Shown here piece by piece: positions 47,965 to 62,615 of a stretch of DNA of 64,000 nucleotides (its first letter is position 1; each line of letters begins with the position of its first letter). Source of the DNA: a bacterium (GTDB lineage Bacteria; Joyebacterota; Joyebacteria; Joyebacterales; Joyebacteraceae); contig JAPEKQ010000002.1 of NCBI GenBank assembly GCA_029990205.1, positions 96,845 to 160,844 of the forward strand. The letters run 5' to 3'. A program made the translations under genes and the position numbers. The notes beneath the pieces are model-generated. The model saw nothing but the letters and a program-made list of their open reading frames with translations. It ran no database searches and was not told the origin of the DNA.

Positions 47965-50289
47965 CTACTTCAGAAGCACCATCTTCGCCGATGCCTCGCG
48001 GCCCCCGGCGATGATCCGCGAGAAGTACACGCCCGCGGCGACACCGCGCCCGGCATCATCTCTGCCGTCCCAGACAACCTGGTGGCTGCCGGCGTCGCGC
48101 TCATCGCCCGCGAGCAGCGTCCGCACGAGCCTGCCGGCCGCGTCATAGACGCGGACGTCGGCGGTCCCACTCGAAGGCATCTGGAAGCTCACGCTCGTGT
48201 GCGGGTTGAACGGGTTCGGGAAGTTGGAGATGGCCAGCTCCCGCGGCACGAAGTCGTCCACGCCCGTCTCGGGCCCCTCGATCGAGATGAGTACGTCATC
48301 GACGTACCAGCCGTCGCGCTCGATGTACCCGTCGGAGTCGAGCAGGAACCGGATCTTGAACTGCGACGTGCCGACGTAGCTCGTCAGGTCGATCGTCTCC
48401 TCGGTCCAGGTCGACTGGCTCCCGTCGTACGTCGCGACGTCGGTCCAGGACGAGCCGTTGTTCGTGCTCACCTCGACGTAGCAGTAGTCGTAGCCGGACT
48501 CGGTGTCGTAGCGGTGCCAGAACGAGAGCTCGGCGCCATCGGCAGAACTGAGATCGATGGCGTTCGCGAGCGTCATCGTCTCGTAGTCGTTGCTCCCGTA
48601 GTTGCCACCCGGACTGTCGGTCATGCAGGTGCTCGGGCTGTACGACGTGGTCGTCGTCGTGCCCCAGCTCCCGGTCCACTCGGCGAGACCCGACTCGATA
48701 TCATCGAAGAAGTCGGGCGCCGCGAGGACGAAATCGACCGAAGCGATCGTGCCGTCGCCGACGCTGACATCGAGTTCCTCTCCCGACGAGTATCCGCTGC
48801 GCGACGCGCGGACATCATAGGTTCCGACAGGGATGTACTCGATCTCGTAGTAGCCGGTCGCATCGCTCTCGTCGGAGTAGCCGGTGGCGTCGGTCAGTTC
48901 GACCAGCGCTCCCTCGAGCGGCAACATCGACTCGTCACGAACGTAGCCTGCGATCGAACCGCGCGGCGGCGGCTCGAGCGCGAAGTTCACGACAACGAAC
49001 GTGTCGAGACTCGCGGAAACGTTGTAGACGGTCTGCGTCGGGTAGTCATCGGCCGAACAGACCACCGTGTAGGTGCCGGTCTCGACCATCCGGTGGTAGT
49101 CACCCACGTCCGGATCGGTGTAGATGTCCTTGCCGATCTCGGGGATGCTGATCGTCGCGTCGATGGGGTCGCCCGTCTCGGCGTCGGTCACCATCCCGCG
49201 AATCCCGCGGCCGGACATTCTGGCCTGATACAGCATCGCCGGGATGTTGTCGTCGACGATCCCGTCGATCGAAGACTCCGGCGGATCCTTCGTGACCGAC
49301 ACCTCGATCGTCGTGTCGATCTCGCCCCTCGTCTCGTAGCACCAGTCCTGGCAGGTGCCATCCGCGACGTACCAGTCGGCGCCGTTGGTCACCGGAAGAC
49401 CGCTCAGCGCGCCGTACTCGTCCGAGATCGTGATGATCATCGGTTCGTCGGGGGTCGGGTTGTACGTGTAGTCCCAGAGGTAGTTGACGTAGACCGCGCC
49501 CGAATGGAACGTGAGCGACGTCACCGGCCGCTTGTCCAGGTCGAAGTCACGGAGCGCCTGCGTCTCGGGCTCGGAGAACGCGGAACCGGCGTTGCTTCCG
49601 TCCGGACAGAGGTAGTTCCGGTTGAGATCGGTCCCGTTCCCGTTGTAGCGGGAGCCGTTCTCGTAGCCGTCCGGATTGAACATCGGGATGATCGTGATCT
49701 CGCGCTCGTTGACGAGCCACGTCACCTGGGGATCGGTCCCGTAGTTCTCGAGGAGGTACTCGATCATGTAGTAGCAGACGGCCATACTGATGGTCTCGTC
49801 GCCGTGGTGCGCGCCGATCCACTGGATCTCGGCCTCGAACTCCTCGACCGTCGGGTTGTCCGTGATCTTCAGCGCCCACATCTCCCGGCCGTACACGCTC
49901 TGACCGATCGAGACGAGTTCCGTGATGTTCGAATAGGTCGACGCCCACGCCTGCATGTCAGCCGTGAGCTCCGCGTAGCTGACGTACACGCCGCGGTCGG
50001 GCACCTTGAGCGACGCCACGGCGTCGATCATGTTCTCGACCGTGATGGCGGGGCGGAACCCGTTCGCCCACAGCGTCTCGATCTCCTCGGGGATGGCGGC
50101 GATCTGCGCCTTCCCGTCGGTCACGGACATGATGTCCATGTGGAGCTCGTTGAGACGATGGATATCGGCCCGCGAGAAGATGTCCACTTCAACAACGGCC
50201 GCGTCATCGCGCGGATAGGCAAGGACGGTCCCGGGGAGCGTCAGCAGGATGAGGAGGACGCCTGCCAGCGCGAGCTGAGCGACCCTCAT
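47965..50289 (-). CDS. Secreted M14 zinc carboxypeptidase with CarboxypepD_reg-like and beta-sandwich domains and a type IX secretion C-terminal sorting domain
   Basis: Signal peptide MRVAQLALAGVLLILLTLPG (SD AGGAGA). M14 zinc ligands HHGDE...H (TFHSGA) and substrate site DLNRNY. Two Ig-like regulatory domains (GMVTDAETGDPIDATISI, GYVRDESMLPLEGALVE). The C-terminus NFPNPFNPHTSVSFQMPSSGTADVRVYDAAGRLVRTLL...GVYFSRIIAGGREASAKMVLLK is a Por_Secre_tail / T9SS CTD. Confidence 0.75.
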   Translation of the reverse strand: MRVAQLALAGVLLILLTLPGTVLAYPRDDAAVVEVDIFSRADIHRLNELHMDIMSVTDGKAQIAAIPEEIETLWANGFRPAITVENMIDAVASLKVPDRGVYVSYAELTADMQAWASTYSNITELVSIGQSVYGREMWALKITDNPTVEEFEAEIQWIGAHHGDETISMAVCYYMIEYLLENYGTDPQVTWLVNEREITIIPMFNPDGYENGSRYNGNGTDLNRNYLCPDGSNAGSAFSEPETQALRDFDLDKRPVTSLTFHSGAVYVNYLWDYTYNPTPDEPMIITISDEYGALSGLPVTNGADWYVADGTCQDWCYETRGEIDTTIEVSVTKDPPESSIDGIVDDNIPAMLYQARMSGRGIRGMVTDAETGDPIDATISIPEIGKDIYTDPDVGDYHRMVETGTYTVVCSADDYPTQTVYNVSASLDTFVVVNFALEPPPRGSIAGYVRDESMLPLEGALVELTDATGYSDESDATGYYEIEYIPVGTYDVRASRSGYSSGEELDVSVGDGTIASVDFVLAAPDFFDDIESGLAEWTGSWGTTTTTSYSPSTCMTDSPGGNYGSNDYETMTLANAIDLSSADGAELSFWHRYDTESGYDYCYVEVSTNNGSSWTDVATYDGSQSTWTEETIDLTSYVGTSQFKIRFLLDSDGYIERDGWYVDDVLISIEGPETGVDDFVPRELAISNFPNPFNPHTSVSFQMPSSGTADVRVYDAAGRLVRTLLAGDERDAGSHQVVWDGRDDAGRGVAAGVYFSRIIAGGREASAKMVLLK

Positions 50290-50348
50290 GGAACATCTCC
50301 TTTCACAGGGTTCTGACACGAGGACAGGTGGCCGGCACGCCGGCCACC

Positions 50349-50370
50349 CGCCCCCACGGATGAACTGTGC
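50349..50370. other. Perfect GC inverted repeat (ggtggccggc-ac-gccggccacc) between the selenoprotein candidate and the carboxypeptidase gene
   Basis: A 10+10 nt palindrome lies 45 nt downstream of the stop at 50415 and about 60 nt upstream of the carboxypeptidase ATG. It could be a terminator/attenuator hairpin or an operator. Confidence 0.35.
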
Positions 50371-50414: not shown

Positions 50415-52460
50415 CTACTTCAGAAGCGCCATCTTGATGACATCGGTCTCCTCCGCGGTCACGAGCCTCGCGAAGTAGACACCGGTGGCCACGCTTCTGC
50501 CGCCCTCGTCACGACCGTTCCACACCACCGAGTGCGGTCCAGCCTCGATCTCGGAGTCCACGAGCGTCCGGACGAGCTGTCCGTTGACATTGTAGACACT
50601 GAGTTCCACCGCGCCCGCGTTGGCCGGGACGCTGAACTGGATGTTCGTGACGGGGTTGAACGGATTCGGCGTGTTCTGACGGAGAGCGAGCTTCGTGAAG
50701 TCCGTCTCGGGCTCCTCGACCCCGGTCTCGTCGAAGTCGAACCAGTCCATGATCTTCCCGGCAACCGTCATCTGGTTGTTCGGATCCGGATCATCGGTCT
50801 TGATGTCCTCGAACGGGAAGGCGAAGAAGACGATCTTGTGCCCGTTCTCGGAGATCTTGAGCGCCTTGTTTCCGCTGCCCGTCGTGAAGATCACGTCGGA
50901 CGTCGTCTCGAACGAGTCGCTCTCGGAGTACGGGATCGGTCCACCGAGCAGACCGAGCGACATGCCGTCGGAGATGAAGTCGGAAGCAACGCCGGTCATG
51001 ATGAACCCGGATGTGTCGTTCGTCCACGACGTGACGTGGAGGTAGTCCTCGATGAACGTGTTGGTCGACCGGCTCGAGAGGTAGTTCATGCTCAGCAGCG
51101 CGAGGTTGCCGCCCGCATCAAGATACCCCATCATCGCGTCCTCAGCAGCGGCCGTGATCGTCAGCGCATCGCGGCTCGCCGTCGTCCAGAAGACCGCGTA
51201 GTAGTCGGTGAGCTGCGGCAGACCCGGCGTGCCGTCGGTGTACGGACTCAGCGTGTACGGGTAGTACCCGTTGTCGGTGAGCGCGTCCTGGATGTAGGTC
51301 TCGTACATCATCGGACCGTCGTCGTCGACGATGAGGATCGCCGGTGTCTCGCAGAAGGCCACGAATTCGGAAACCTGCTCCATCGCGTTCGCCGCACTGG
51401 TCATGCTGAGCGACGTCACACCCTTGTCCACGAGCGTTCCGTTGTAGTCGATGATGTGCACGGTGAGCGTCTCGGTATCGCCGGCCGCGACGAAAATGTC
51501 GGTCGCGCCCATGTAGCAGATGCCGTCGGTCGTGCAGTAGTTGGAGACCCAGTTGTACGGATCGCCGGGGAAGTCGGTCGTGAAGTCAAACGTGTACGTG
51601 TCGTCGGCGGTACCCGTGTTCGTGCAGTAGACGGTGTACACGGCCTCGCCGAAGAAGTCGATCTCCTCGGCGTGGTGCGTCGCGACCATCTCGAACGAAT
51701 ACGGATCGGGCATGATCGCCGCGTTGATGACCTGCTGCGGCGACTGATCCTCGATGAAGACAACGACGTGCATGTTGAGCGGGTTGTCCGTCGAGTTCGT
51801 CACACCCGTGAACGTCTTGTTGAACGTGACGTGCTCGCCGACCTCGAGATCGGCTTCGAGGATGGTCTCGGCCATGAGCATGTCGCGGACCGTGTACGGG
51901 TACGAAGCGTTCACGTCCTCGTAGATGACGAACTGCGCGACCAGGTCGCCCGCGCCGATGACATCCGTCGCTGTGAACGTGACATCGATCGTCCCGCCGA
52001 CGGTCCCGCGAGTCCCCTCGGCCACGATCGTGCCGGACACATCGATCTCGACCGGTGACGCGACAGCGAGACGAGACTCGACGATCGGGCCGAAGGTGTT
52101 CCCCACCGTCGTGCCCGCGCCAACGACATTCTGCGCACCATCGAACACCGTGTGCGGAATGCCGCCGACACTGTAGTAGCTCGCGCGCTGATAGGTGTCA
52201 CCAGTCGCGTAGATGTCGCTCACGTGGTAATAGAGCACCACGAGATCATCACCGTACGGGCCATACTGCACGCCGGTACTCGTGTGCACATAGCCGTTGT
52301 CCTGAAGGTCTACCAACGCCGCACGGGCGTTTGGGCAGTAGCCTCAGCCAGTTGATCCAAAGAGCTCCGCCAGGACCGCCCTGTCCGACGCGAGGGCGGA
52401 GACGGCGGACATCAGCAGGACTGCCGTCACGAGGGCAAAGATCGCCGTACGCTTCACCAT
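50415..52460 (-). CDS. Candidate selenoprotein: secreted thioredoxin-fold protein with UxxC motif (in-frame TGA at 52344-52346) and T9SS C-terminal sorting domain
   Basis: AAGGAG-N6-ATG at 52460 opens the signal peptide MVKRTAIFALVTAVLLMSAVSALASDRAVLAELFGSTG, followed by TGA, then the same frame continues for 643 codons. The region around the TGA aligns without gaps to the CxxC of the adjacent paralog: RAVLAELFGSTG-U-GYCPNARAALVDL versus RNVLVEFMTDFA-C-VNCPNGEAALENL. The C-terminus TPNPFNPVTNIQFSVPANAGAVELSVYNVNGQLVRTL...GVYFARLVTAEETDVIKMALLK is a T9SS CTD. The ORF track only reports the part after the TGA, starting at 52316. Confidence 0.55.
52344..52346 (-). other. In-frame UGA codon, candidate selenocysteine recoding site
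   Basis: This is codon 39 of the ORF above. It aligns to the first Cys of the CVNC motif in the paralog at 52618-53706. An imperfect hairpin (roughly nt +4 to +35 after the UGA, with a GU-containing apical loop CGUGC) is present where a bacterial SECIS would be expected. It was folded by eye only. Confidence 0.45.
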
Positions 52461-52617
52461 GCTGCTCTCCTTTCGCGGCGATGCCGCGCTGCTCTCAGGA
52501 TCCTTTCGCCCAGCCCAATGTGGCGACAGTGTTCCTGCTCTCGTGCTGTCGTTTCATGCTTCCTGTCGTCATCCGCTGCTGTTATGTCCTTCTCCCTGCA
52601 CCTGTGGTTCATCTATC

Positions 52618-53706
52618 TCAAGGACGCTGCGAGGTCGAGAGCCTCGCCGACTGAATGATCTCCAGCGTGTCATCGTTCTGAATGAACGCGATCGCGTCCA
52701 GATTCGCTGCGTTCCAACCGGGGTCGAGCGTCACGTCGTAGATGACCTCGGTGGACTCTCCGACTGCGGCCAGTGTGAACTGCTCGTCGTCGAGGATGTC
52801 GCGCGCGACGAACGGGAACAGATGCTGCGCGAAGGCAACATCCTCCTCCATCACGACGGTTCTCAGTACGTAGTCGCCCGCCGGCAACGCGTCTTCGACC
52901 CACACCTTCGCCGTCAACGAAGCGCGCGCCGAGAGGTCGCCGGTCAGCTCCATCGTGAGCGGTGACCCCACCGCCCGTCTGAGCTCGATCTCGAACTCGT
53001 ACTCGTCCTCGGCCTCCGCTACCGACGCGGCGCCGACGATCAGGCGCCCACCGTCGAAGATGGCCATCGGATGACCGCTACCGCCCGGGAACTCGGGATG
53101 GTTCAGATACCAGGTCTCCCGGGCCGCGGTCTCCGCCGTCCCGACCGGCTGGAGTGTGTGCCAGGCGACGACACAGAGCCTGTCCCTGCCGTACGCGTCC
53201 ATGAGGTTCTCGAGCGCCGCCTCGCCGTTGGGGCAGTTGACGCACGCGAAGTCGGTCATGAACTCGACGAGCACGTTCCGGTCGACCAGCCCCCCGGCCG
53301 GCCCGGCCGAGAACGAACAGGTCGCCGCTGTTCCCTCATCACCGGCGTCATCGACGGCCGCGACGGTGAAGACGTGATCGCCCTCCTCTACACTCTCAAT
53401 GAGAAGCGTGTCCGCCGTCGTCGATCCCGTGACGGTGTCGTCGTACGTCCACTCGTAGCTCGCCACATCACCATCGATGTCCGTGCCGACCCACCGGATG
53501 ATCGTGTCCTCGCCGGCGAGAAGCGTGCCCGCCTGGGGACAATCGGTGATCGTCACGCTCGGCAGGAAGTTCGCCGCGATCGGATCTGTGAACCAGTCAC
53601 ATCCTCCCTGTGCCGCGATCCAGACGACCAGGAGGATGAGCGCGAACAGCGGCCTGGCGGCGCGCGGCCGACCAACGCTGCTCGTATGATGCGTTCCGTT
53701 CGTCAC
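52618..53706 (-). CDS. Secreted/lipoprotein-like thioredoxin-fold protein with CxxC (CVNC), Cys-containing paralog of the selenoprotein candidate
   Basis: Signal peptide with a lipobox-like WIAAQGGC, an Ig-like beta-sandwich domain, then VLVEFMTDFACVNCPNGEAAL...LCVVAWH...GHPMAIFDGG. This is a thioredoxin-like beta-strand/CxxC/helix arrangement followed by a cis-Pro loop. It has no T9SS CTD. Confidence 0.6.
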   Translation of the reverse strand: MTNGTHHTSSVGRPRAARPLFALILLVVWIAAQGGCDWFTDPIAANFLPSVTITDCPQAGTLLAGEDTIIRWVGTDIDGDVASYEWTYDDTVTGSTTADTLLIESVEEGDHVFTVAAVDDAGDEGTAATCSFSAGPAGGLVDRNVLVEFMTDFACVNCPNGEAALENLMDAYGRDRLCVVAWHTLQPVGTAETAARETWYLNHPEFPGGSGHPMAIFDGGRLIVGAASVAEAEDEYEFEIELRRAVGSPLTMELTGDLSARASLTAKVWVEDALPAGDYVLRTVVMEEDVAFAQHLFPFVARDILDDEQFTLAAVGESTEVIYDVTLDPGWNAANLDAIAFIQNDDTLEIIQSARLSTSQRP

Positions 53707-53718
53707 GAAACCATCCTC

Positions 53719-55197
53719 CTAGAAGTAGGTCGTCAGTCTGACGCGCGCACCCGAGAACTCCGGCTCGACGCGGCAGACGCCGCCCGAGCACTTGAGACCG
53801 CCGCGCTCGCTTCCGATCGACACGCCAAGCTCGAGGTCATCTCTGAGAATGCTCTTCACCTCGAACATCGCCCAGACACTCCGGTCCTCGGACTCGTCAT
53901 CCGTTCCCTCGACAACCGACGCGAAGGTGATGCCGGACGACGTGTAGACGGTCATCGCGACGAGGTAGTCGAGCGATACCGTCTCGGCGATGTCGGTCGT
54001 CTCACCGGCCTGCACCTGGAGCTCCATCGGCTGACCCGACGGCAGCGGCAGGATCACTTCCGCTCCGGCCGTCTTGTGCTCGATGAACTTGCCGAGTTCG
54101 TACTCGCGGGACCAGGCGGCTCCGGCAGAGAGTGACGTGTCACCGATCCACGCGTCGGCCTGCCCGAACATCTCCCAGTGCGCCAGGTCGGCGTCGTGGT
54201 TCCTCGCCTCCGACGCCCCGCCGAGGACGGTGACGCTCTCTCCGAGCGGCACGGTCGCCTCGACAAGATACCCGCGCTCGTCGTTGAGCTTCGGCTCGTA
54301 GGTCGCGCGGTTCATCAGCGTCCAGAGATGCTCGCGTACGGCCGTCGGCGGATTGACCAGGAAGTGCTGGAACCGGTCGTAATCCTTGTACTCACCGAAC
54401 AGCGTTGCCCACGGCAGCTCGACCGTCGCCGTGACATAGGTGGCATGACCCTCCATGTCATCGATCTCGAGTTCTCCGTCGTCGCCCTGACGCCCGACAT
54501 ACTCGCCCGCCAGCGACACCGGACCGAGCCACGCATTCACCTCACCGCCCAGAAGCAGGTCCTCGGAGCGCCCGAGTGACTCGGTAACGATCGGATCGTC
54601 GTCTTCCTTGTTCGACGCCCGCTCAACGACGCTTCCCGCGATGTCGAGCCAGCTCGCGACCGAGCGGGTCGCGCGAACAGCGCGAACGTTGTGCCTGCGA
54701 TACCTCGTCTCGGACAGCGGCTCGTCCACGGAACCCGCCAGCACGGTCACATCGGCGGCCGAGAACGAATACTCACCGAGCAGGCCGTCGAGCACGGTGT
54801 CGTGCTCAAGATCAACATCCTCGAAGCTCCTCAGAGCCAGCCCGCGACCGAACGTCGAGTAGAAGTGTCCCACCCGCAGGTGGAGATTCTCACGGTCGAG
54901 CGCGGCGTACCGGTGCTTGATCTCGGACTCCGGGATGTTCACGCCAGCCGGGTTGTATGTCGGCAGCGAGAGCTGGTAAGCGCGGTAGACGGCGCCCACG
55001 GTCAGCGGACCTATGCCGGCATCGACTTCGAGTCTGGCGTCGAAGGCGGACGCCTCCTCCCCCGTATCGAAGAGATACTCGCCGGTCACCGCGCCGCTCG
55101 ACCAGGCTCCGTCATCGGCCGAGGCTATCGCCGGCGCGACGGACATGAGTCCCGCAACGGCGATGCAAAGGAGGACTCGTCTAGTCAACGGCTCCAT
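53719..55197 (-). CDS. Predicted outer-membrane beta-barrel protein (uncharacterised)
   Basis: Signal peptide MEPLTRRVLLCIAVAGLMSVAPAIASADD, alternating amphipathic beta-strands throughout, and a C-terminus ...RVRLTTYF (terminal aromatic residue typical of OMPs). A CSGGVC pair lies near the C-terminus. The ORF track's first 47 aa are artefact. Confidence 0.5.
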   Translation of the reverse strand: MEPLTRRVLLCIAVAGLMSVAPAIASADDGAWSSGAVTGEYLFDTGEEASAFDARLEVDAGIGPLTVGAVYRAYQLSLPTYNPAGVNIPESEIKHRYAALDRENLHLRVGHFYSTFGRGLALRSFEDVDLEHDTVLDGLLGEYSFSAADVTVLAGSVDEPLSETRYRRHNVRAVRATRSVASWLDIAGSVVERASNKEDDDPIVTESLGRSEDLLLGGEVNAWLGPVSLAGEYVGRQGDDGELEIDDMEGHATYVTATVELPWATLFGEYKDYDRFQHFLVNPPTAVREHLWTLMNRATYEPKLNDERGYLVEATVPLGESVTVLGGASEARNHDADLAHWEMFGQADAWIGDTSLSAGAAWSREYELGKFIEHKTAGAEVILPLPSGQPMELQVQAGETTDIAETVSLDYLVAMTVYTSSGITFASVVEGTDDESEDRSVWAMFEVKSILRDDLELGVSIGSERGGLKCSGGVCRVEPEFSGARVRLTTYF

Positions 55198-55762
55198 CCT
55201 CGTTGACGGCCGCTTCCTCGGTCTCAGCCTCGTCGCCCTCGTCCGGACAGTCCTCGGGGATGAGCGCCGCGACGGCGGCGTCCAGTTCCGCGTGGTTCGT
55301 CGGCCGGTACCCGGTGACCGCCCACGCGACCGTCCCATCCTGCCTCACGAGAACCGTGCGCGGGACCGACGTCACGTGGTACTTCTTCGCGACGGCCATA
55401 CTCGGGTCGAGCAGCACCTCAAAGGTGTTGCCCTTCGAGGCGATGAACGGCTTCACCTTCGAGGTCGAACGAGGTCCGTCGATCGAGATCGCAACGACCG
55501 TCAGACCGCAGTCTTCGTATTTGTCAAAGAGCTCCTGCAGATCCGGAAAGGCCTTGATGCACGGCTTGCACCACGTGGCCCAGAAATCAAGGACAACCGG
55601 TCCATCCTTCAGCAACTCAGAGAGCGTCACATCTTCGCCGTCGATGTTCTTCAGCGTGAACTCGGGCGCCTTCGCATTGGCGCCGTATGACATAGTCGTC
55701 CCCATCAACACGAGGACGGCCGCGCACAGAAGTGCGAGTCCGGTTCGTCTCCTGCCGGTCAT
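55181..55762 (-). CDS. TlpA/ResA-like periplasmic thiol-disulfide oxidoreductase
   Basis: Signal peptide, then VVLDFWATWCKPCIKAFPDLQEL...VVAISID..., the redoxin fold with WCxPC. Confidence 0.8.
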   Translation of the reverse strand: MTGRRRTGLALLCAAVLVLMGTTMSYGANAKAPEFTLKNIDGEDVTLSELLKDGPVVLDFWATWCKPCIKAFPDLQELFDKYEDCGLTVVAISIDGPRSTSKVKPFIASKGNTFEVLLDPSMAVAKKYHVTSVPRTVLVRQDGTVAWAVTGYRPTNHAELDAAVAALIPEDCPDEGDEAETEEAAVNEDGAVD

Positions 55763-55788
55763 GAGTCCCCCAATAGTTGGCCTAACTT

Positions 55789-55817
55789 ATTATACCACCA
55801 TCATTACCAATGGTCAA
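55789..55817 (-). promoter_or_regulatory. Near-consensus sigma70-type promoter (TTGACC-N17-TATAAT) driving the TlpA-led operon
   Basis: The minus strand reads TTGACC attggtaatgatggtgg TATAAT in a local AT-rich patch. The TlpA start codon is about 27 nt downstream, with SD GGGGGA. Confidence 0.4.
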
Positions 55818-57591: not shown

Positions 57592-58176
57592 CTAGATGTT
57601 CTCCGCGCCGCCCAGGAGCATCTCGATCTCGGACCGCATCTCGGGACGCATCTCGTTGGAGAAACCGATGTGCTTGGCTGCGATGCGACCGTCGCGCCCG
57701 ATGATGAACGTCGTCGGAATACCGCTGACCTTGTACGCCTCACCGACGGTACGGTTGCCAACGAGAATCGTGTAGTCGATGCCGTTGCTGTCGACGAACG
57801 GAGCGAGATCCGTCGCGCCACCCTGGTCGAGGCCGACGATCTCGAGCCCCTGCTCTTCGAACTCATCGTAGAGCTCTATGAGGAACGGGATCTCCTCGCG
57901 GCACGGCGGACACCACGTCGCCCAGAGGTCGAGCACGACGACCTTGCCATCGAAATCGCTCAGCGAGACTTCCTCGCCGTCGAGATTCGGAAGCACGAAC
58001 GCCGGCGGGAACTCACCCACGTTGACGCCGGTCTCCTCGGAGGTTTCGGGGCTGTCCATCGCGACGGTCTCGTCCGCCGTCGTCGCGGCCTCGTCCGTCG
58101 AGCCGCTGCACCCGCCGAGGATGCCGACGGCGAACAGGGCGATCAGCGCGAAGGCCACTGCGTTTCTCATCTTCAT
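57592..58176 (-). CDS. TlpA-like thiol-disulfide oxidoreductase lipoprotein
   Basis: Lipobox ILGGCSG, then VVLDLWATWCPPCREEIPFL in a redoxin fold. Confidence 0.8.
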   Translation of the reverse strand: MKMRNAVAFALIALFAVGILGGCSGSTDEAATTADETVAMDSPETSEETGVNVGEFPPAFVLPNLDGEEVSLSDFDGKVVVLDLWATWCPPCREEIPFLIELYDEFEEQGLEIVGLDQGGATDLAPFVDSNGIDYTILVGNRTVGEAYKVSGIPTTFIIGRDGRIAAKHIGFSNEMRPEMRSEIEMLLGGAENI

Positions 58177-58240
58177 AGTCTCACTCCCTGAGCTGTGTCC
58201 GCGCCGGGCGCCGTGCGCCGCGCGGAAGCTGTGTCCGTGC

Positions 58241-58573
58241 CTATGCGAGATGCTGGTCGATGCGCTCCTGGATGCTCTGCTTCGAGGCGGCGCCGACGAT
58301 CATGTCGACCTGCTGTCCGGCCTTGAAGAACAGAAGCGCGGGGATGCCGCGGATGCCGTACTGCTGCGCGAGCGTCGGGTTCTCATCGACGTTCACCTTC
58401 GCGACCTTCATCTTGCCTGCGTTGTCGACGGCGATCTCGTCCACGACGGGACCGACGAGCCTGCACGGGGCACACCAGGGCGCCCAAAAGTCCACGAGGA
58501 CCAGTCCGCTGTCACCAGCTACTTCCGTCGCGAAGTTGTCGACCGTTGCTGTGATCACGCCTTCTCCAGCCAT
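58241..58573 (-). CDS. trxA: Thioredoxin
   Basis: 110 aa with LVDFWAPWCAPCR and a cis-Pro region GIRGIPALLFF. Confidence 0.85.
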   Translation of the reverse strand: MAGEGVITATVDNFATEVAGDSGLVLVDFWAPWCAPCRLVGPVVDEIAVDNAGKMKVAKVNVDENPTLAQQYGIRGIPALLFFKAGQQVDMIVGAASKQSIQERIDQHLA

Positions 58574-58643
58574 TGTACTCCCCCTGTTGCCCCGCCGTCA
58601 TGCGGCGGGTGTTTCGGGTCCGCTGCCACTGTTGTCGATCGTT

Positions 58644-58985
58644 CTAGTTCCGCTTCCCGCTCGCGCGCCCGTGTGCCGGGGGCACAAGCACCTTCAACAC
58701 CGCCGCCGCAGACTCATCCCGCAGCCGGTAGCAGACGAGGTGCCCCTTTCTCTCCGACTCGATGAGCCCCGCGTACCGAAGCCGCTGCAGATGCTGGGAA
58801 ACCGACGGCTGCGGCACCCCCAGAAGCTCCTCAAGCCTGCTGACACACAGCTCCCCCTCCCGAAGCAGATGCACGATTCTGAGCCTGGTCGGGTGAGACA
58901 TCGCTTTGAGGACCTCGGCAGCGCGGCCGAAGGTCTCTTCGATGTTCCCGCTGCCTGGTGAGGTCATGGTCACGCTCCTTGTCAC
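58644..58985 (-). CDS. ArsR/SmtB-family metal/redox-responsive transcriptional regulator
   Basis: Winged HTH: LKAMSHPTRLRIVHLLREGELCVSRLEELLGVPQPSVSQHLQRLRYAGLI. Confidence 0.75.
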   Translation of the reverse strand: MTRSVTMTSPGSGNIEETFGRAAEVLKAMSHPTRLRIVHLLREGELCVSRLEELLGVPQPSVSQHLQRLRYAGLIESERKGHLVCYRLRDESAAAVLKVLVPPAHGRASGKRN

Positions 58986-62458: not shown

Positions 62459-62532
62459 AGGGGAGTCGTCTAGTGGCAGGACAGCGGACTCTGGATCCGC
62501 CGGCGGAGGTTCGACCCCTCCCTCCCCTACCA
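62459..62532 (+). tRNA. tRNA-Gln (anticodon CUG)
   Basis: The cloverleaf was folded by hand: acceptor AGGGGAG/CTCCCCT, D-stem GTCT/GGAC, anticodon stem GCGGA/TCCGC with loop CTCTGGA, T-arm GGAGG-TTCGACC-CCTCC, A73 and an encoded CCA. It starts 7 nt after the gltX stop. Confidence 0.65.
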
Positions 62533-62540
62533 CGACATAA

Positions 62541-62615
62541 GGCGCCATCGTCTAGCGGTTAGGACGCCGGCCTCTCAAGCCGGTAACACGGGTTCGATCC
62601 CCGTTGGCGCTACCA
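62541..62615 (+). tRNA. tRNA-Glu (anticodon CUC)
   Basis: GGCGCCATCGTCTAGCGGTTAGGACGCCGGCCTCTCAAGCCGGTAACACGGGTTCGATCCCCGTTGGCGCTACCA. It closely parallels canonical bacterial tRNA-Glu (TCGTCTAG..GG...AGGAC, CGGTAACA, GGGTTCGA), with anticodon loop CUCUCAA. Confidence 0.8.

Follow-up and report, generated by a model that had tools for sequence, protein, structure and literature searches.

A conserved gene cluster encoding a TlpA-like reductase, a DUF6029 outer-membrane barrel and Omp28/HBP35-like proteins, one a candidate selenoprotein, as a possible envelope thiol-redox module

Organization of the locus

In-silico analysis was carried out on a stretch of 64,000 nucleotides (nt) of contig JAPEKQ010000002.1 (the window, meaning the whole 64-kb stretch; positions refer to it unless another locus is named), in which four co-oriented genes, all on the minus strand, encode a TlpA-like reductase, a DUF6029 outer-membrane beta-barrel and two thioredoxin-fold proteins, the second being a candidate selenoprotein with a type IX secretion system (T9SS) sorting domain. 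To judge by the named homologues of the barrel, the window holds the Candidatus Eisenbacteria copy of a cluster that is found in several phyla. An original prediction made from the sequence of the window had placed the four genes behind a TTGACC-N17-TATAAT promoter and read them as one functional module, and every feature that it described was found at its predicted position. The genes and their key elements, with the length of each product in amino acids (aa), are as follows.

55789-55817, minus strand: sigma-70-type promoter TTGACC-N17-(TG)n-TATAAT, 11/12 match, with a TG extended -10
55181-55762, minus strand: TlpA/ResA-like periplasmic thiol-disulfide oxidoreductase, 193 aa, above the Pfam cut-off
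55559-55570, minus strand: CKPC active-site codons (Cys65-Cys68) of the TlpA-like protein, read from the sequence
53719-55197, minus strand: DUF6029 outer-membrane beta-barrel, 492 aa, start MEPLTRR (Pfam PF19494)
53773-53790, minus strand: CSGGVC codons (Cys470-Cys475) in a short hairpin that precedes the last barrel strand, without variation in alignments A1 and A3
52618-53706, minus strand: Omp28/HBP35-like lipoprotein, 362 aa, from sub-cut-off NCBIfam/Pfam matches and paralogy to the selenoprotein candidate
53233-53244, minus strand: CVNC codons (Cys155-Cys158) of the lipoprotein, read from the sequence and aligned with U39-C42 of its paralogue
50415-52460, minus strand: selenoprotein candidate, 681 aa, with ATG at 52460 behind GGAG, an in-frame TGA and a stop at 50415
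52344-52346, minus strand: in-frame UGA read as selenocysteine (Sec; residue 39, first position of UGYC), from Sec/Cys alternation
52310-52338, minus strand: hairpin resembling a selenocysteine insertion sequence (SECIS), from its fold and conserved core, starting 6 nt after the UGA
50418-50669, minus strand: T9SS type A C-terminal sorting domain of the selenoprotein candidate (residues ~598-681; TIGR04183, PF18962)

The reading frames of tlpA and the barrel gene overlap by 17 nt, 12 nt separate the barrel gene from the lipoprotein gene, and 157 nt lie between the lipoprotein gene and the selenoprotein gene. The promoter, confirmed at 55817-55789, stands about 27 nt 5' of the tlpA-like start codon. 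Counted alone at a 9/12 threshold, such sites number one against 1.1 expected in shuffled sequence, which is chance level; the element TTGAC[CG]-17/18-TGnTATAAT recurs 26-30 nt 5' of the tlpA start in about 28 orthologous loci, in which TlpA identity falls as low as 59%. Since both motif and spacing are kept in these loci, the promoter is under selection, and its conservation and the overlapping tlpA and barrel reading frames count in favour of one functional module.

The TlpA-like protein and the DUF6029 barrel

The first gene product carries a signal peptide, the motif WATWCKPC, an acidic C-terminal tail and an extra clade-specific Cys (EDCPDEG). It scores 96.2 bits against PF00578 AhpC-TSA (cut-off 26) and 84.9 bits against PF08534 Redoxin (cut-off 26.6), and stays below the NCBIfam cut-offs for ResA (101 against 170 bits), TlpA (53 against 230) and DsbE (50 against 123). 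It is therefore TlpA-like at the level of the family and no orthologue of a characterised enzyme, and the periplasmic WCxPC oxidoreductase that had been predicted here stands at that level, by Pfam and by motif. The WATWCxPC motif is kept across phyla. Near-clade TlpA-like proteins have the extra Cys conserved within (L/F)PxxC(P/E)E and, after it, a long acidic tail with GE/VE at its end (55181-55260); in many other lineages the acidic tail occurs without the extra Cys, and the Flavobacteriia lack both. The tail could be a flexible arm.

The second gene product belongs to DUF6029, a family of about 1,250 clusters at 50% identity; it scores 97.5 bits against the PF19494 gathering score of 27, and PF19494 is present in all 120 homologues listed for it. 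Its C-terminus reads ...ERGGLKCSGGVCRVEPEFSGARVRLTTYF, and the family motif (E/Q)RGGLxC[ST]GGxCR plus a terminal aromatic residue, which is invariant in alignments A1 and A3, appears in it as SERGGLKCSGGVCRVEPEFSGARVRLTTYF. The Cx4C pair was found in 131/132 diverse DUF6029 representatives and in 119/119 Flavobacteriia homologues (250/251 in total), and in comparisons between phyla, where overall identity is about 18%, only the C-terminal Cys pair and its surrounding glycines are invariant. The call of an outer-membrane barrel with a C-terminal CSGGVC thus gains a family, DUF6029, of which the Cys pair is the defining invariant.

The AlphaFold model (predicted local distance difference test, pLDDT, 76) is an outer-membrane beta-barrel of about 24 long strands, for which the closest structural matches are 24-strand ushers, and a short Cys-bearing hairpin lies at residues 467-478, directly before the last strand. 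Counting strand parity from a periplasmic N-terminus, we infer that this hairpin and the segments 114-134 and 278-303 would lie in extracellular or lumenal loops. The latter two, conserved as TFGRGLxLRSxEDxxLExDT and EYKDYxxFxHxLVNPPTxVREHxWTLMNRxT, have pLDDT below 50 and may be loops within the lumen or a partner-binding surface beyond the reach of a monomer model. Pfam gave no TonB box or plug-domain family match for the barrel. That it might be a generic porin, a possibility raised along with the original prediction, was rejected on the DUF6029-specific Cx4C motif and the synteny with TlpA.

Synteny across phyla

Conservation of the neighbourhood was assessed in 67 loci around DUF6029 genes, to which a metagenome scan contributed only 10, by scanning with hidden Markov models from the TlpA-like, Omp28-like and DUF6029 proteins and reading through TGA. 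In 63 of the 64 testable loci the gene immediately 5' of DUF6029, co-oriented with it and separated by -1 to 167 nt, is TlpA-like, the sole exception being one Ignavibacteriota locus. The lineages with this pair include Eisenbacteria, Holophagae, WOR-3, Bacteroidota (Pedobacter and four cultured Flavobacteriia) and others.

An Omp28-like gene with a C/UxxC motif accompanies the pair in every Eisenbacteria locus with sufficient flank, in 3/3 Holophagae loci (of which several have TGA), in WOR-3 (1/1) and in five of the six Bacteroidota loci. The last comprise Pedobacter (L053/L054, one locus retrieved twice), four cultured Flavobacteriia (L064-L067) and L055, a Flavobacteria-like locus that alone of the six lacks an Omp28-like gene; none was found either in the other distinct loci L044, L049, L050 and L056-L060. 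TlpA and DUF6029 remain paired even where no Omp28-like gene is near, which makes the barrel the more likely immediate partner of TlpA than the surface proteins.

Gene order varies between the phyla. The Omp28-like gene stands 3' of the barrel gene in Eisenbacteria and mainly upstream of tlpA in WOR-3 and Holophagae, the three Holophagae loci having a further one 3' of the barrel gene, and in Flavobacteriia an Omp28 lipoprotein is divergent from tlpA. The flavobacterial lipoprotein has the layout of the third gene of the window, namely a lipobox, an Ig-like domain and then E(D/E)YTGxWCGWCPR. Such variation argues for selection on proximity and not for inherited gene order. The trio occurs in cultured Nonlabens, Kordia, Psychroserpens and Moheibacter, and Moheibacter sediminis has the full four-part layout, with two Omp28+T9SS genes after the barrel gene. 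Altogether, the cross-phylum synteny, which had been put forward as a check on the prediction, strongly supports the proposal that the four genes form one functional module, and we consider it very probable that they function together.

Several variants of the cluster were noted alongside. Next to its Omp28+T9SS genes the Moheibacter cluster also encodes an AhpC-TSA protein that bears a T9SS tail, and another small T9SS cargo (L066 11347-11671 and 10364-11113), so that Moheibacter apparently exports more than one kind of thioredoxin-fold protein to its surface. In distant Eisenbacteria (L030, L037, L043) the fourth gene either lacks the thioredoxin/Omp28 part, with only residues 254-681 matched, or is fused to the lipoprotein, and one to three separate Sec-containing Omp28-like T9SS genes with the motifs USGC, ULYC, UGGC, UPGC and UAGC stand upstream of tlpA (L028-L039, L043). 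The domains are shuffled in this clade and the parts list is kept.

Omp28/HBP35-like thioredoxin-fold proteins

The third and fourth gene products are paralogous (26% identity, E 3e-17), and the first Cys of CVNC aligns on the UGA of the fourth gene. In the lipoprotein a lipobox-like AAQGG-C36 is followed by an Ig-like domain (weak PKD/Big matches at residues 49-136), a thioredoxin-like domain with CVNC and an Omp28-type beta-sandwich; it had been described as a lipobox-bearing CVNC protein with an Ig-like domain, and this layout is present, the lipobox itself being non-canonical. The selenoprotein candidate consists of a signal peptide, a thioredoxin-like domain (UGYCP), an Omp28-type beta-sandwich, a second beta-sandwich, a GATase1/ThuA-like alpha/beta domain and the T9SS domain. 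The sorting domain exceeds its curated cut-offs (TIGR04183, 31.7 bits against 23; PF18962, 28.4 against 27) and also matches FlgD_ig at 50.6 bits. Two thioredoxin-fold paralogues, one with a T9SS tail, had been predicted and are upheld on these grounds.

Although a thioredoxin-like CxxC region followed by an Omp28 beta-sandwich was found, matches to the Omp28 families are below their cut-offs. The lipoprotein and the selenoprotein candidate score 16.8 and 26.6 bits, respectively, against PF11551 (cut-off 34.9), 45.4 and 16.3 against NF033782 (cut-off 150), and 42.5 and 40.5 against NF045500, 'Omp28-related selenoprotein' (cut-off 200); the NCBIfam E-values of the lipoprotein are 5.8e-12 for Omp28 lipoprotein and 5e-11 for Omp28_seleno, both again below the cut-off. 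Judged by sequence, the two proteins form a separate remote branch of the Omp28/HBP35 superfamily outside the curated families.

The fold of the fourth gene product was taken from the predicted model of a 74%-identical Cys orthologue, P0123 (pLDDT 85), which from N- to C-terminus shows a b-a-b-a-b-b-a thioredoxin-like domain, two beta-sandwiches, an alpha/beta domain and a sorting domain, with the C/U position at the start of helix 1. The thioredoxin fold is thus borne out by structure prediction, as the original prediction had suggested checking. Porphyromonas gingivalis HBP35 is the closest solved structure to this model (comparison figure 22.1), followed by the DUF1223 protein Atu2684 (17.9), GATase1/ThuA-like proteins for the alpha/beta domain (15-17), the Omp28 domain (12.1) and plain thioredoxins (~12), and profile searches of PDB sequences agree with these matches. 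The Cys-His-Glu catalytic triad of class I glutamine amidotransferases is absent from the alpha/beta domain, which has no invariant Cys or His and is therefore no active amidotransferase; that candidate activity was rejected.

Selenocysteine in the fourth gene

At the aligned position of the UGA, TGA stands in about 16 of the orthologous loci and TGC/TGT in about 10 others, and in the lipoprotein orthologues the motif is always Cys. The 38 residues 5' of the UGA (signal peptide and DRAVLAELFGSTG) are conserved and, in the Cys forms, run on without a break into the remainder of the protein, and coding conservation continues 3' of it, where GYCPNARAAL is kept. The hairpin that follows has 11 bp, a 2-nt bulge and a CGUGC loop, and its core GCC-CGUGN-GGC is invariant in 14 Sec forms whose proteins are only 45-86% identical, an invariance that extends to four synonymous third positions and to CGU, a rare codon in the genome (G+C content at third codon positions, GC3, 0.87). 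In the 10 Cys forms the core is intact in two and has one mismatch in two, and in six the hairpin codons have drifted to other amino acids; the four with an intact or nearly intact core are read as probable recent Sec-to-Cys conversions.

Folding of the 71 nt that follow the UGA gives a z-score of 0.49, which is not significant in GC-rich DNA, so the support for a SECIS comes from synonymous-site invariance. Covariation cannot be demonstrated because the upper stem is invariant, and among orthologues the lower stem keeps no consistent register. With Sec/Cys alternation and a hairpin fixed even at synonymous sites, the selenocysteine reading of the UGA, a comparative call, is strong, and what had been proposed as a selenocysteine candidate may now be held with that strength. 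Further Omp28-like genes in distant Eisenbacteria and Holophagae have TGA at the same motif position, each with a different hairpin after it. Selenocysteine occurs only at the first motif position, in many independent paralogues, a recurrence that is typical of catalytic redox sites.

Public gene calls for the fourth gene start after the UGA (50415-52316), giving proteins of 624 aa (NCBI/Logan) and 633 aa (Logan) that consequently lack the signal peptide and the active site, and orthologues are annotated as split into an open reading frame of 37-38 aa and a protein of about 610 aa. Truncation at the UGA is a systematic annotation error for this family.

Further observations touch the history of these genes. 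Short remnants of the N-terminus of a Sec gene, made up of a signal peptide, TGA and then diverged sequence (...AELFGATS*GLPP...), lie just 5' of a full-length Cys version in two loci (L019 10738-10878; L024 10690-10827) and have the look of Sec copies that decayed once the gene had been duplicated and its Sec replaced by Cys. Some Eisenbacteria carry tandem copies of the Sec-containing T9SS gene (L004 9840-13972; L026 10653-13088 onward), with the motif variants USFC and UGSC in L026, where one copy has a different hairpin, CAGCGCA-GGC-UGCGCUG. In one other lineage selA (Pfam SelA, 6e-146) stands directly 3' of TlpA-DUF6029, at the following positions.

L044, 9486-10892: selA next to the pair (Pfam SelA)
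L056, 7336-8745: selA next to the pair (Pfam SelA)
L057/L058, 7363-8769: selA next to the pair (Pfam SelA)

The loci of this lineage have a PEGA+TlpA-like lipoprotein and a small T9SS cargo protein upstream, and no Omp28-like gene. The adjacency of selA may hint at a link between the module and selenium metabolism.

Comparison with known systems

HBP35 of P. gingivalis has a CxYCP motif, is secreted by the T9SS to the cell surface and shows thioredoxin activity in vitro (PMC2907840). The selenoprotein candidate shares with HBP35 (PG0616/PGN_0659; PDB 5y1a) an N-terminal CxYCP thioredoxin-like domain, a beta-sandwich and a T9SS C-terminal domain, at about 15% identity; HBP35, however, has Cys in place of Sec and lacks the second beta-sandwich and the GATase1-like domain. 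The flavobacterial Omp28 lipoproteins beside TlpA-DUF6029 have the lipobox, Ig domain and E(D/E)(Y/F)TG..C..CP in common with the third gene product. In the Omp28 families (PF11551, NF033782, NF045500) a Sec branch is already curated, and the proteins of the window fall far below every cut-off. DUF1223 (Atu2684, PDB 2axo) is a proteobacterial family of unknown function, without a T9SS tail and with no known barrel partner.

The TlpA-like protein resembles the middle member of the pathways that run from DsbD/CcdA through TlpA/ResA/CcmG to a client (ScoI/CoxB, apocytochrome c), being an exported AhpC-TSA/Redoxin-type WCxxC protein. Such periplasmic reducing pathways deliver electrons to a specific extracytoplasmic client, whereas the conserved partner here is an outer-membrane barrel, which is no known client class; a cytochrome-maturation or Sco context was rejected, as no such genes are nearby. 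With the FimD/PapC ushers the barrel shares its fold only (about 9-11% identity): DUF6029 has neither the usher plug nor the N- or C-terminal domains, pilus genes are not near it, and it has an invariant C-terminal ERGGLxCxGGxC motif of its own. MtrCAB of Shewanella can be compared by analogy only, since the module has no haem motifs and its chemistry would be dithiol/selenothiol exchange and not haem hopping.

Proposed function and alternatives

TlpA/ResA/CcmG-type proteins are reductants fed by DsbD/CcdA, and T9SS C-terminal domains send cargo to the cell surface. On this background we tentatively propose, with a probability of roughly 0.45, that the cluster encodes an envelope thiol-redox module which keeps a reduced thiol/selenol centre at the outer membrane or surface, TlpA serving the Cys pair of the barrel and/or the Omp28-like sites. 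Its core would be a TlpA-like CxxC reductase and a DUF6029 barrel of about 24 strands, the genes of the two being co-transcribed and, in the window, also coupled in translation; its usual companions would be Omp28/HBP35-type proteins sent to the outer membrane, in the window a CVNC lipoprotein and a UGYC T9SS cargo. A DsbD/CcdA-type transporter encoded outside the window would pass cytoplasmic reducing equivalents to TlpA, which would hold the barrel Cys pair and/or the C/UxxC sites of the Omp28-like proteins reduced. At the outer membrane or surface this would maintain a thiol/selenol centre of strong nucleophilicity, which could reduce or exchange disulfides, or other oxidised sulfur, selenium or metal species, in external substrates. 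The barrel Cys pair would, on this view, be redox-active and the proximal client of TlpA, because TlpA and DUF6029 are obligate partners and a dedicated reductase would be odd for a structural disulfide. Co-transcription, localisation, direction of electron flow, physical contact and the substrate are elements that we infer.

A number of points weigh against this proposal. It presumes physical contact between the module proteins, and the Cys hairpin of the barrel would, on the model, be on the outer side or in the lumen, where TlpA, being periplasmic, would have access to it only via the lumen or while the barrel is not yet assembled. The barrel model itself is of moderate confidence, and the most conserved segments (114-134, 278-303 and 470-475) are poorly modelled. 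Neither dsbD nor ccdA was seen in the 64-kb window, and selA, selB, selD and tRNA-Sec were seen neither there nor in the Eisenbacteria loci (ARAGORN, tblastn). In seven distinct TlpA+DUF6029 loci no gene within 6-8 kb is Omp28-like, which shows that the module can do without the surface proteins. Lastly, no physiological role is known for the thioredoxin domain of HBP35, a protein that also binds hemin (PMC2907840).

The most serious alternative, which we hold to be somewhat unlikely, centres on uptake or anchoring by the barrel: DUF6029 would be a channel with a surface lipoprotein as its lid, on the pattern of SusCD, BtuBG or HmuR/HmuY, a ligand (haem, metal, or a sulfur/selenium compound) would be captured by the Omp28/HBP35-like proteins and no electrons would travel outward. 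TlpA would then serve only barrel biogenesis, by reduction or isomerisation of the Cys pair in transit (as DsbC does for LptD), or ligand release in the periplasm. Pairs of a barrel and a surface lipoprotein are a common design in Bacteroidota, and such an arrangement would suit both the obligate pairing of TlpA with DUF6029, the Omp28-like genes being dispensable in seven loci, and the presence of selA beside the pair in one lineage. It would also suit the binding of hemin by HBP35 and the need for HBP35 under hemin limitation, but the hemin site is outside the thioredoxin domain (PMC2907840). The barrel, moreover, shows no TonB box or plug-domain family match, recurrent selenocysteine at the nucleophilic position points to catalysis and not to binding, and a reductase in place of an oxidase would be an odd dedicated partner for a structural disulfide.

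A bolder form of the redox proposal, distinctly unlikely in our view, is a dithiol/selenothiol relay across the outer membrane made up of TlpA, DUF6029 and the Omp28/HBP35-like proteins. TlpA would reach the Cx4C hairpin through the lumen of the ~24-strand barrel, and the hairpin would pass electrons to the CxxC lipoprotein and the UxxC T9SS protein, in an outer-membrane counterpart of DsbD in logic, MtrCAB-like in architecture. A 24-strand lumen with an outer-side hairpin, as modelled, would plausibly be compatible with such a relay. The original prediction had read the arrangement as a conduit passing reducing or oxidising equivalents across or at the outer membrane, which is a plausible hypothesis.

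Less probable still is a sacrificial antioxidant shield, in which the Omp28-like Cys/Sec proteins would scavenge external oxidants after being reduced once by TlpA before export, with no recycling, and the barrel would merely be a structural neighbour or docking site. Thioredoxin-fold selenoproteins with UxxC/CxxC are often peroxide- or disulfide-reactive, and the genes next to the Eisenbacteria cluster include an ArsR-type regulator together with a cytoplasmic thioredoxin and a second TlpA-like lipoprotein. The authors of the HBP35 study suggested a role in cell-surface redox status, yet that study found no oxidative-stress phenotype (PMC2907840). A one-shot reagent would further be a costly use of selenocysteine, and a shield leaves the near-absolute TlpA-DUF6029 coupling and the invariant barrel Cys pair unexplained.

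DUF6029 has also been proposed as a Wzi-like polysaccharide porin (PMC9603273), and were it such an export porin, the adjoining redox genes would be functionally unrelated to it. We regard this as very improbable, given that no OPX, Wzx/Wzy or glycosyltransferase genes flank the barrel in the loci inspected, that its closest structures are 24-strand ushers and not the 18-strand Wzi, and that TlpA adjacency in 63 of 64 loci is beyond coincidence. A chance neighbourhood of four unrelated exported proteins, with which the promoter match counted alone would agree in not exceeding shuffle expectation, is refuted by the cross-phylum synteny, the overlapping reading frames and the promoter conserved in about 28 loci, and has practically no weight left.

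Novelty and significance

Among open-access papers none was found linking TlpA, DUF6029 and Omp28/HBP35-like proteins, none describing a T9SS selenoprotein, selenocysteine in Eisenbacteria or an Omp28-selenoprotein branch, and nothing on Omp28 with thioredoxin; DUF6029 was mentioned only in PMC9603273. The original prediction had not recognised the combination as a described system, which is right for the module as a whole and not for its parts, as Omp28/HBP35, NF045500 and DUF6029 are known. The components are thus known families, and what is new is a dedicated outer-membrane barrel partner and recurrent selenocysteine in the HBP35-type surface thioredoxin pathway.

We know of no route for thiol-based reducing power across the bacterial outer membrane, and to our knowledge the question of how surface thioredoxins such as HBP35 stay active has been open since 2010. 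Here, surface thioredoxin-fold proteins are genetically tied, in at least four phyla, to a dedicated periplasmic reductase and also to a large barrel whose sole invariant feature is a Cys pair, and evolution has repeatedly placed selenocysteine at the nucleophilic position of the surface proteins. The cluster offers the first functional context for DUF6029 and adds a candidate secreted T9SS selenoprotein. As the trio is present in cultured Flavobacteriia, the question of surface-thioredoxin upkeep becomes directly testable. If the trans-outer-membrane relay were true, diderms of the Fibrobacteres-Chlorobi-Bacteroidetes (FCB) group and Acidobacteriota would own catalytic, rechargeable reducing power outside the cell.

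Neighbouring genes and other features

Two further elements, both named in the original prediction and both present, follow the fourth gene.

50322-50353, no strand assigned: GC-rich palindrome between the Sec gene and the M14 gene, an inverted repeat with 15-nt arms, 87% complementary, and a 2-nt spacer
47965-50319, minus strand: M14 zinc carboxypeptidase with a T9SS tail (Pfam Peptidase_M14, 2.4e-51)

The palindrome is a possible transcript-end hairpin without a U-tract, and a consensus scan found no intrinsic terminator with a U-tract. The M14 gene lies downstream in the nearer Eisenbacteria clade only and is absent from the distant clade and other phyla; it was rejected as a core member and is taken as a clade-specific neighbour. 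Of T9SS-related proteins besides the selenoprotein candidate, those seen were cargo-like only, as this peptidase is. An Rfam search of the module region and of the whole window returned no SECIS and no family besides two tRNAs, the adjacent tRNA-Gln(CTG) and tRNA-Glu(CTC) at 62459-62615, which are the sole RNA genes detected in the window.

Upstream of the module lies a block (57592-58985 onward) that is syntenic in the nearer Eisenbacteria clade and not in the distant clade or other phyla. It comprises an ArsR/HTH_5-type regulator (58644-58985), a cytoplasmic thioredoxin with WCAPC (58241-58573) and a second TlpA-like protein, a lipoprotein with LGGC and WATWCPPC (57592-58176), after which come a YkuD L,D-transpeptidase and a deoxynucleoside kinase.

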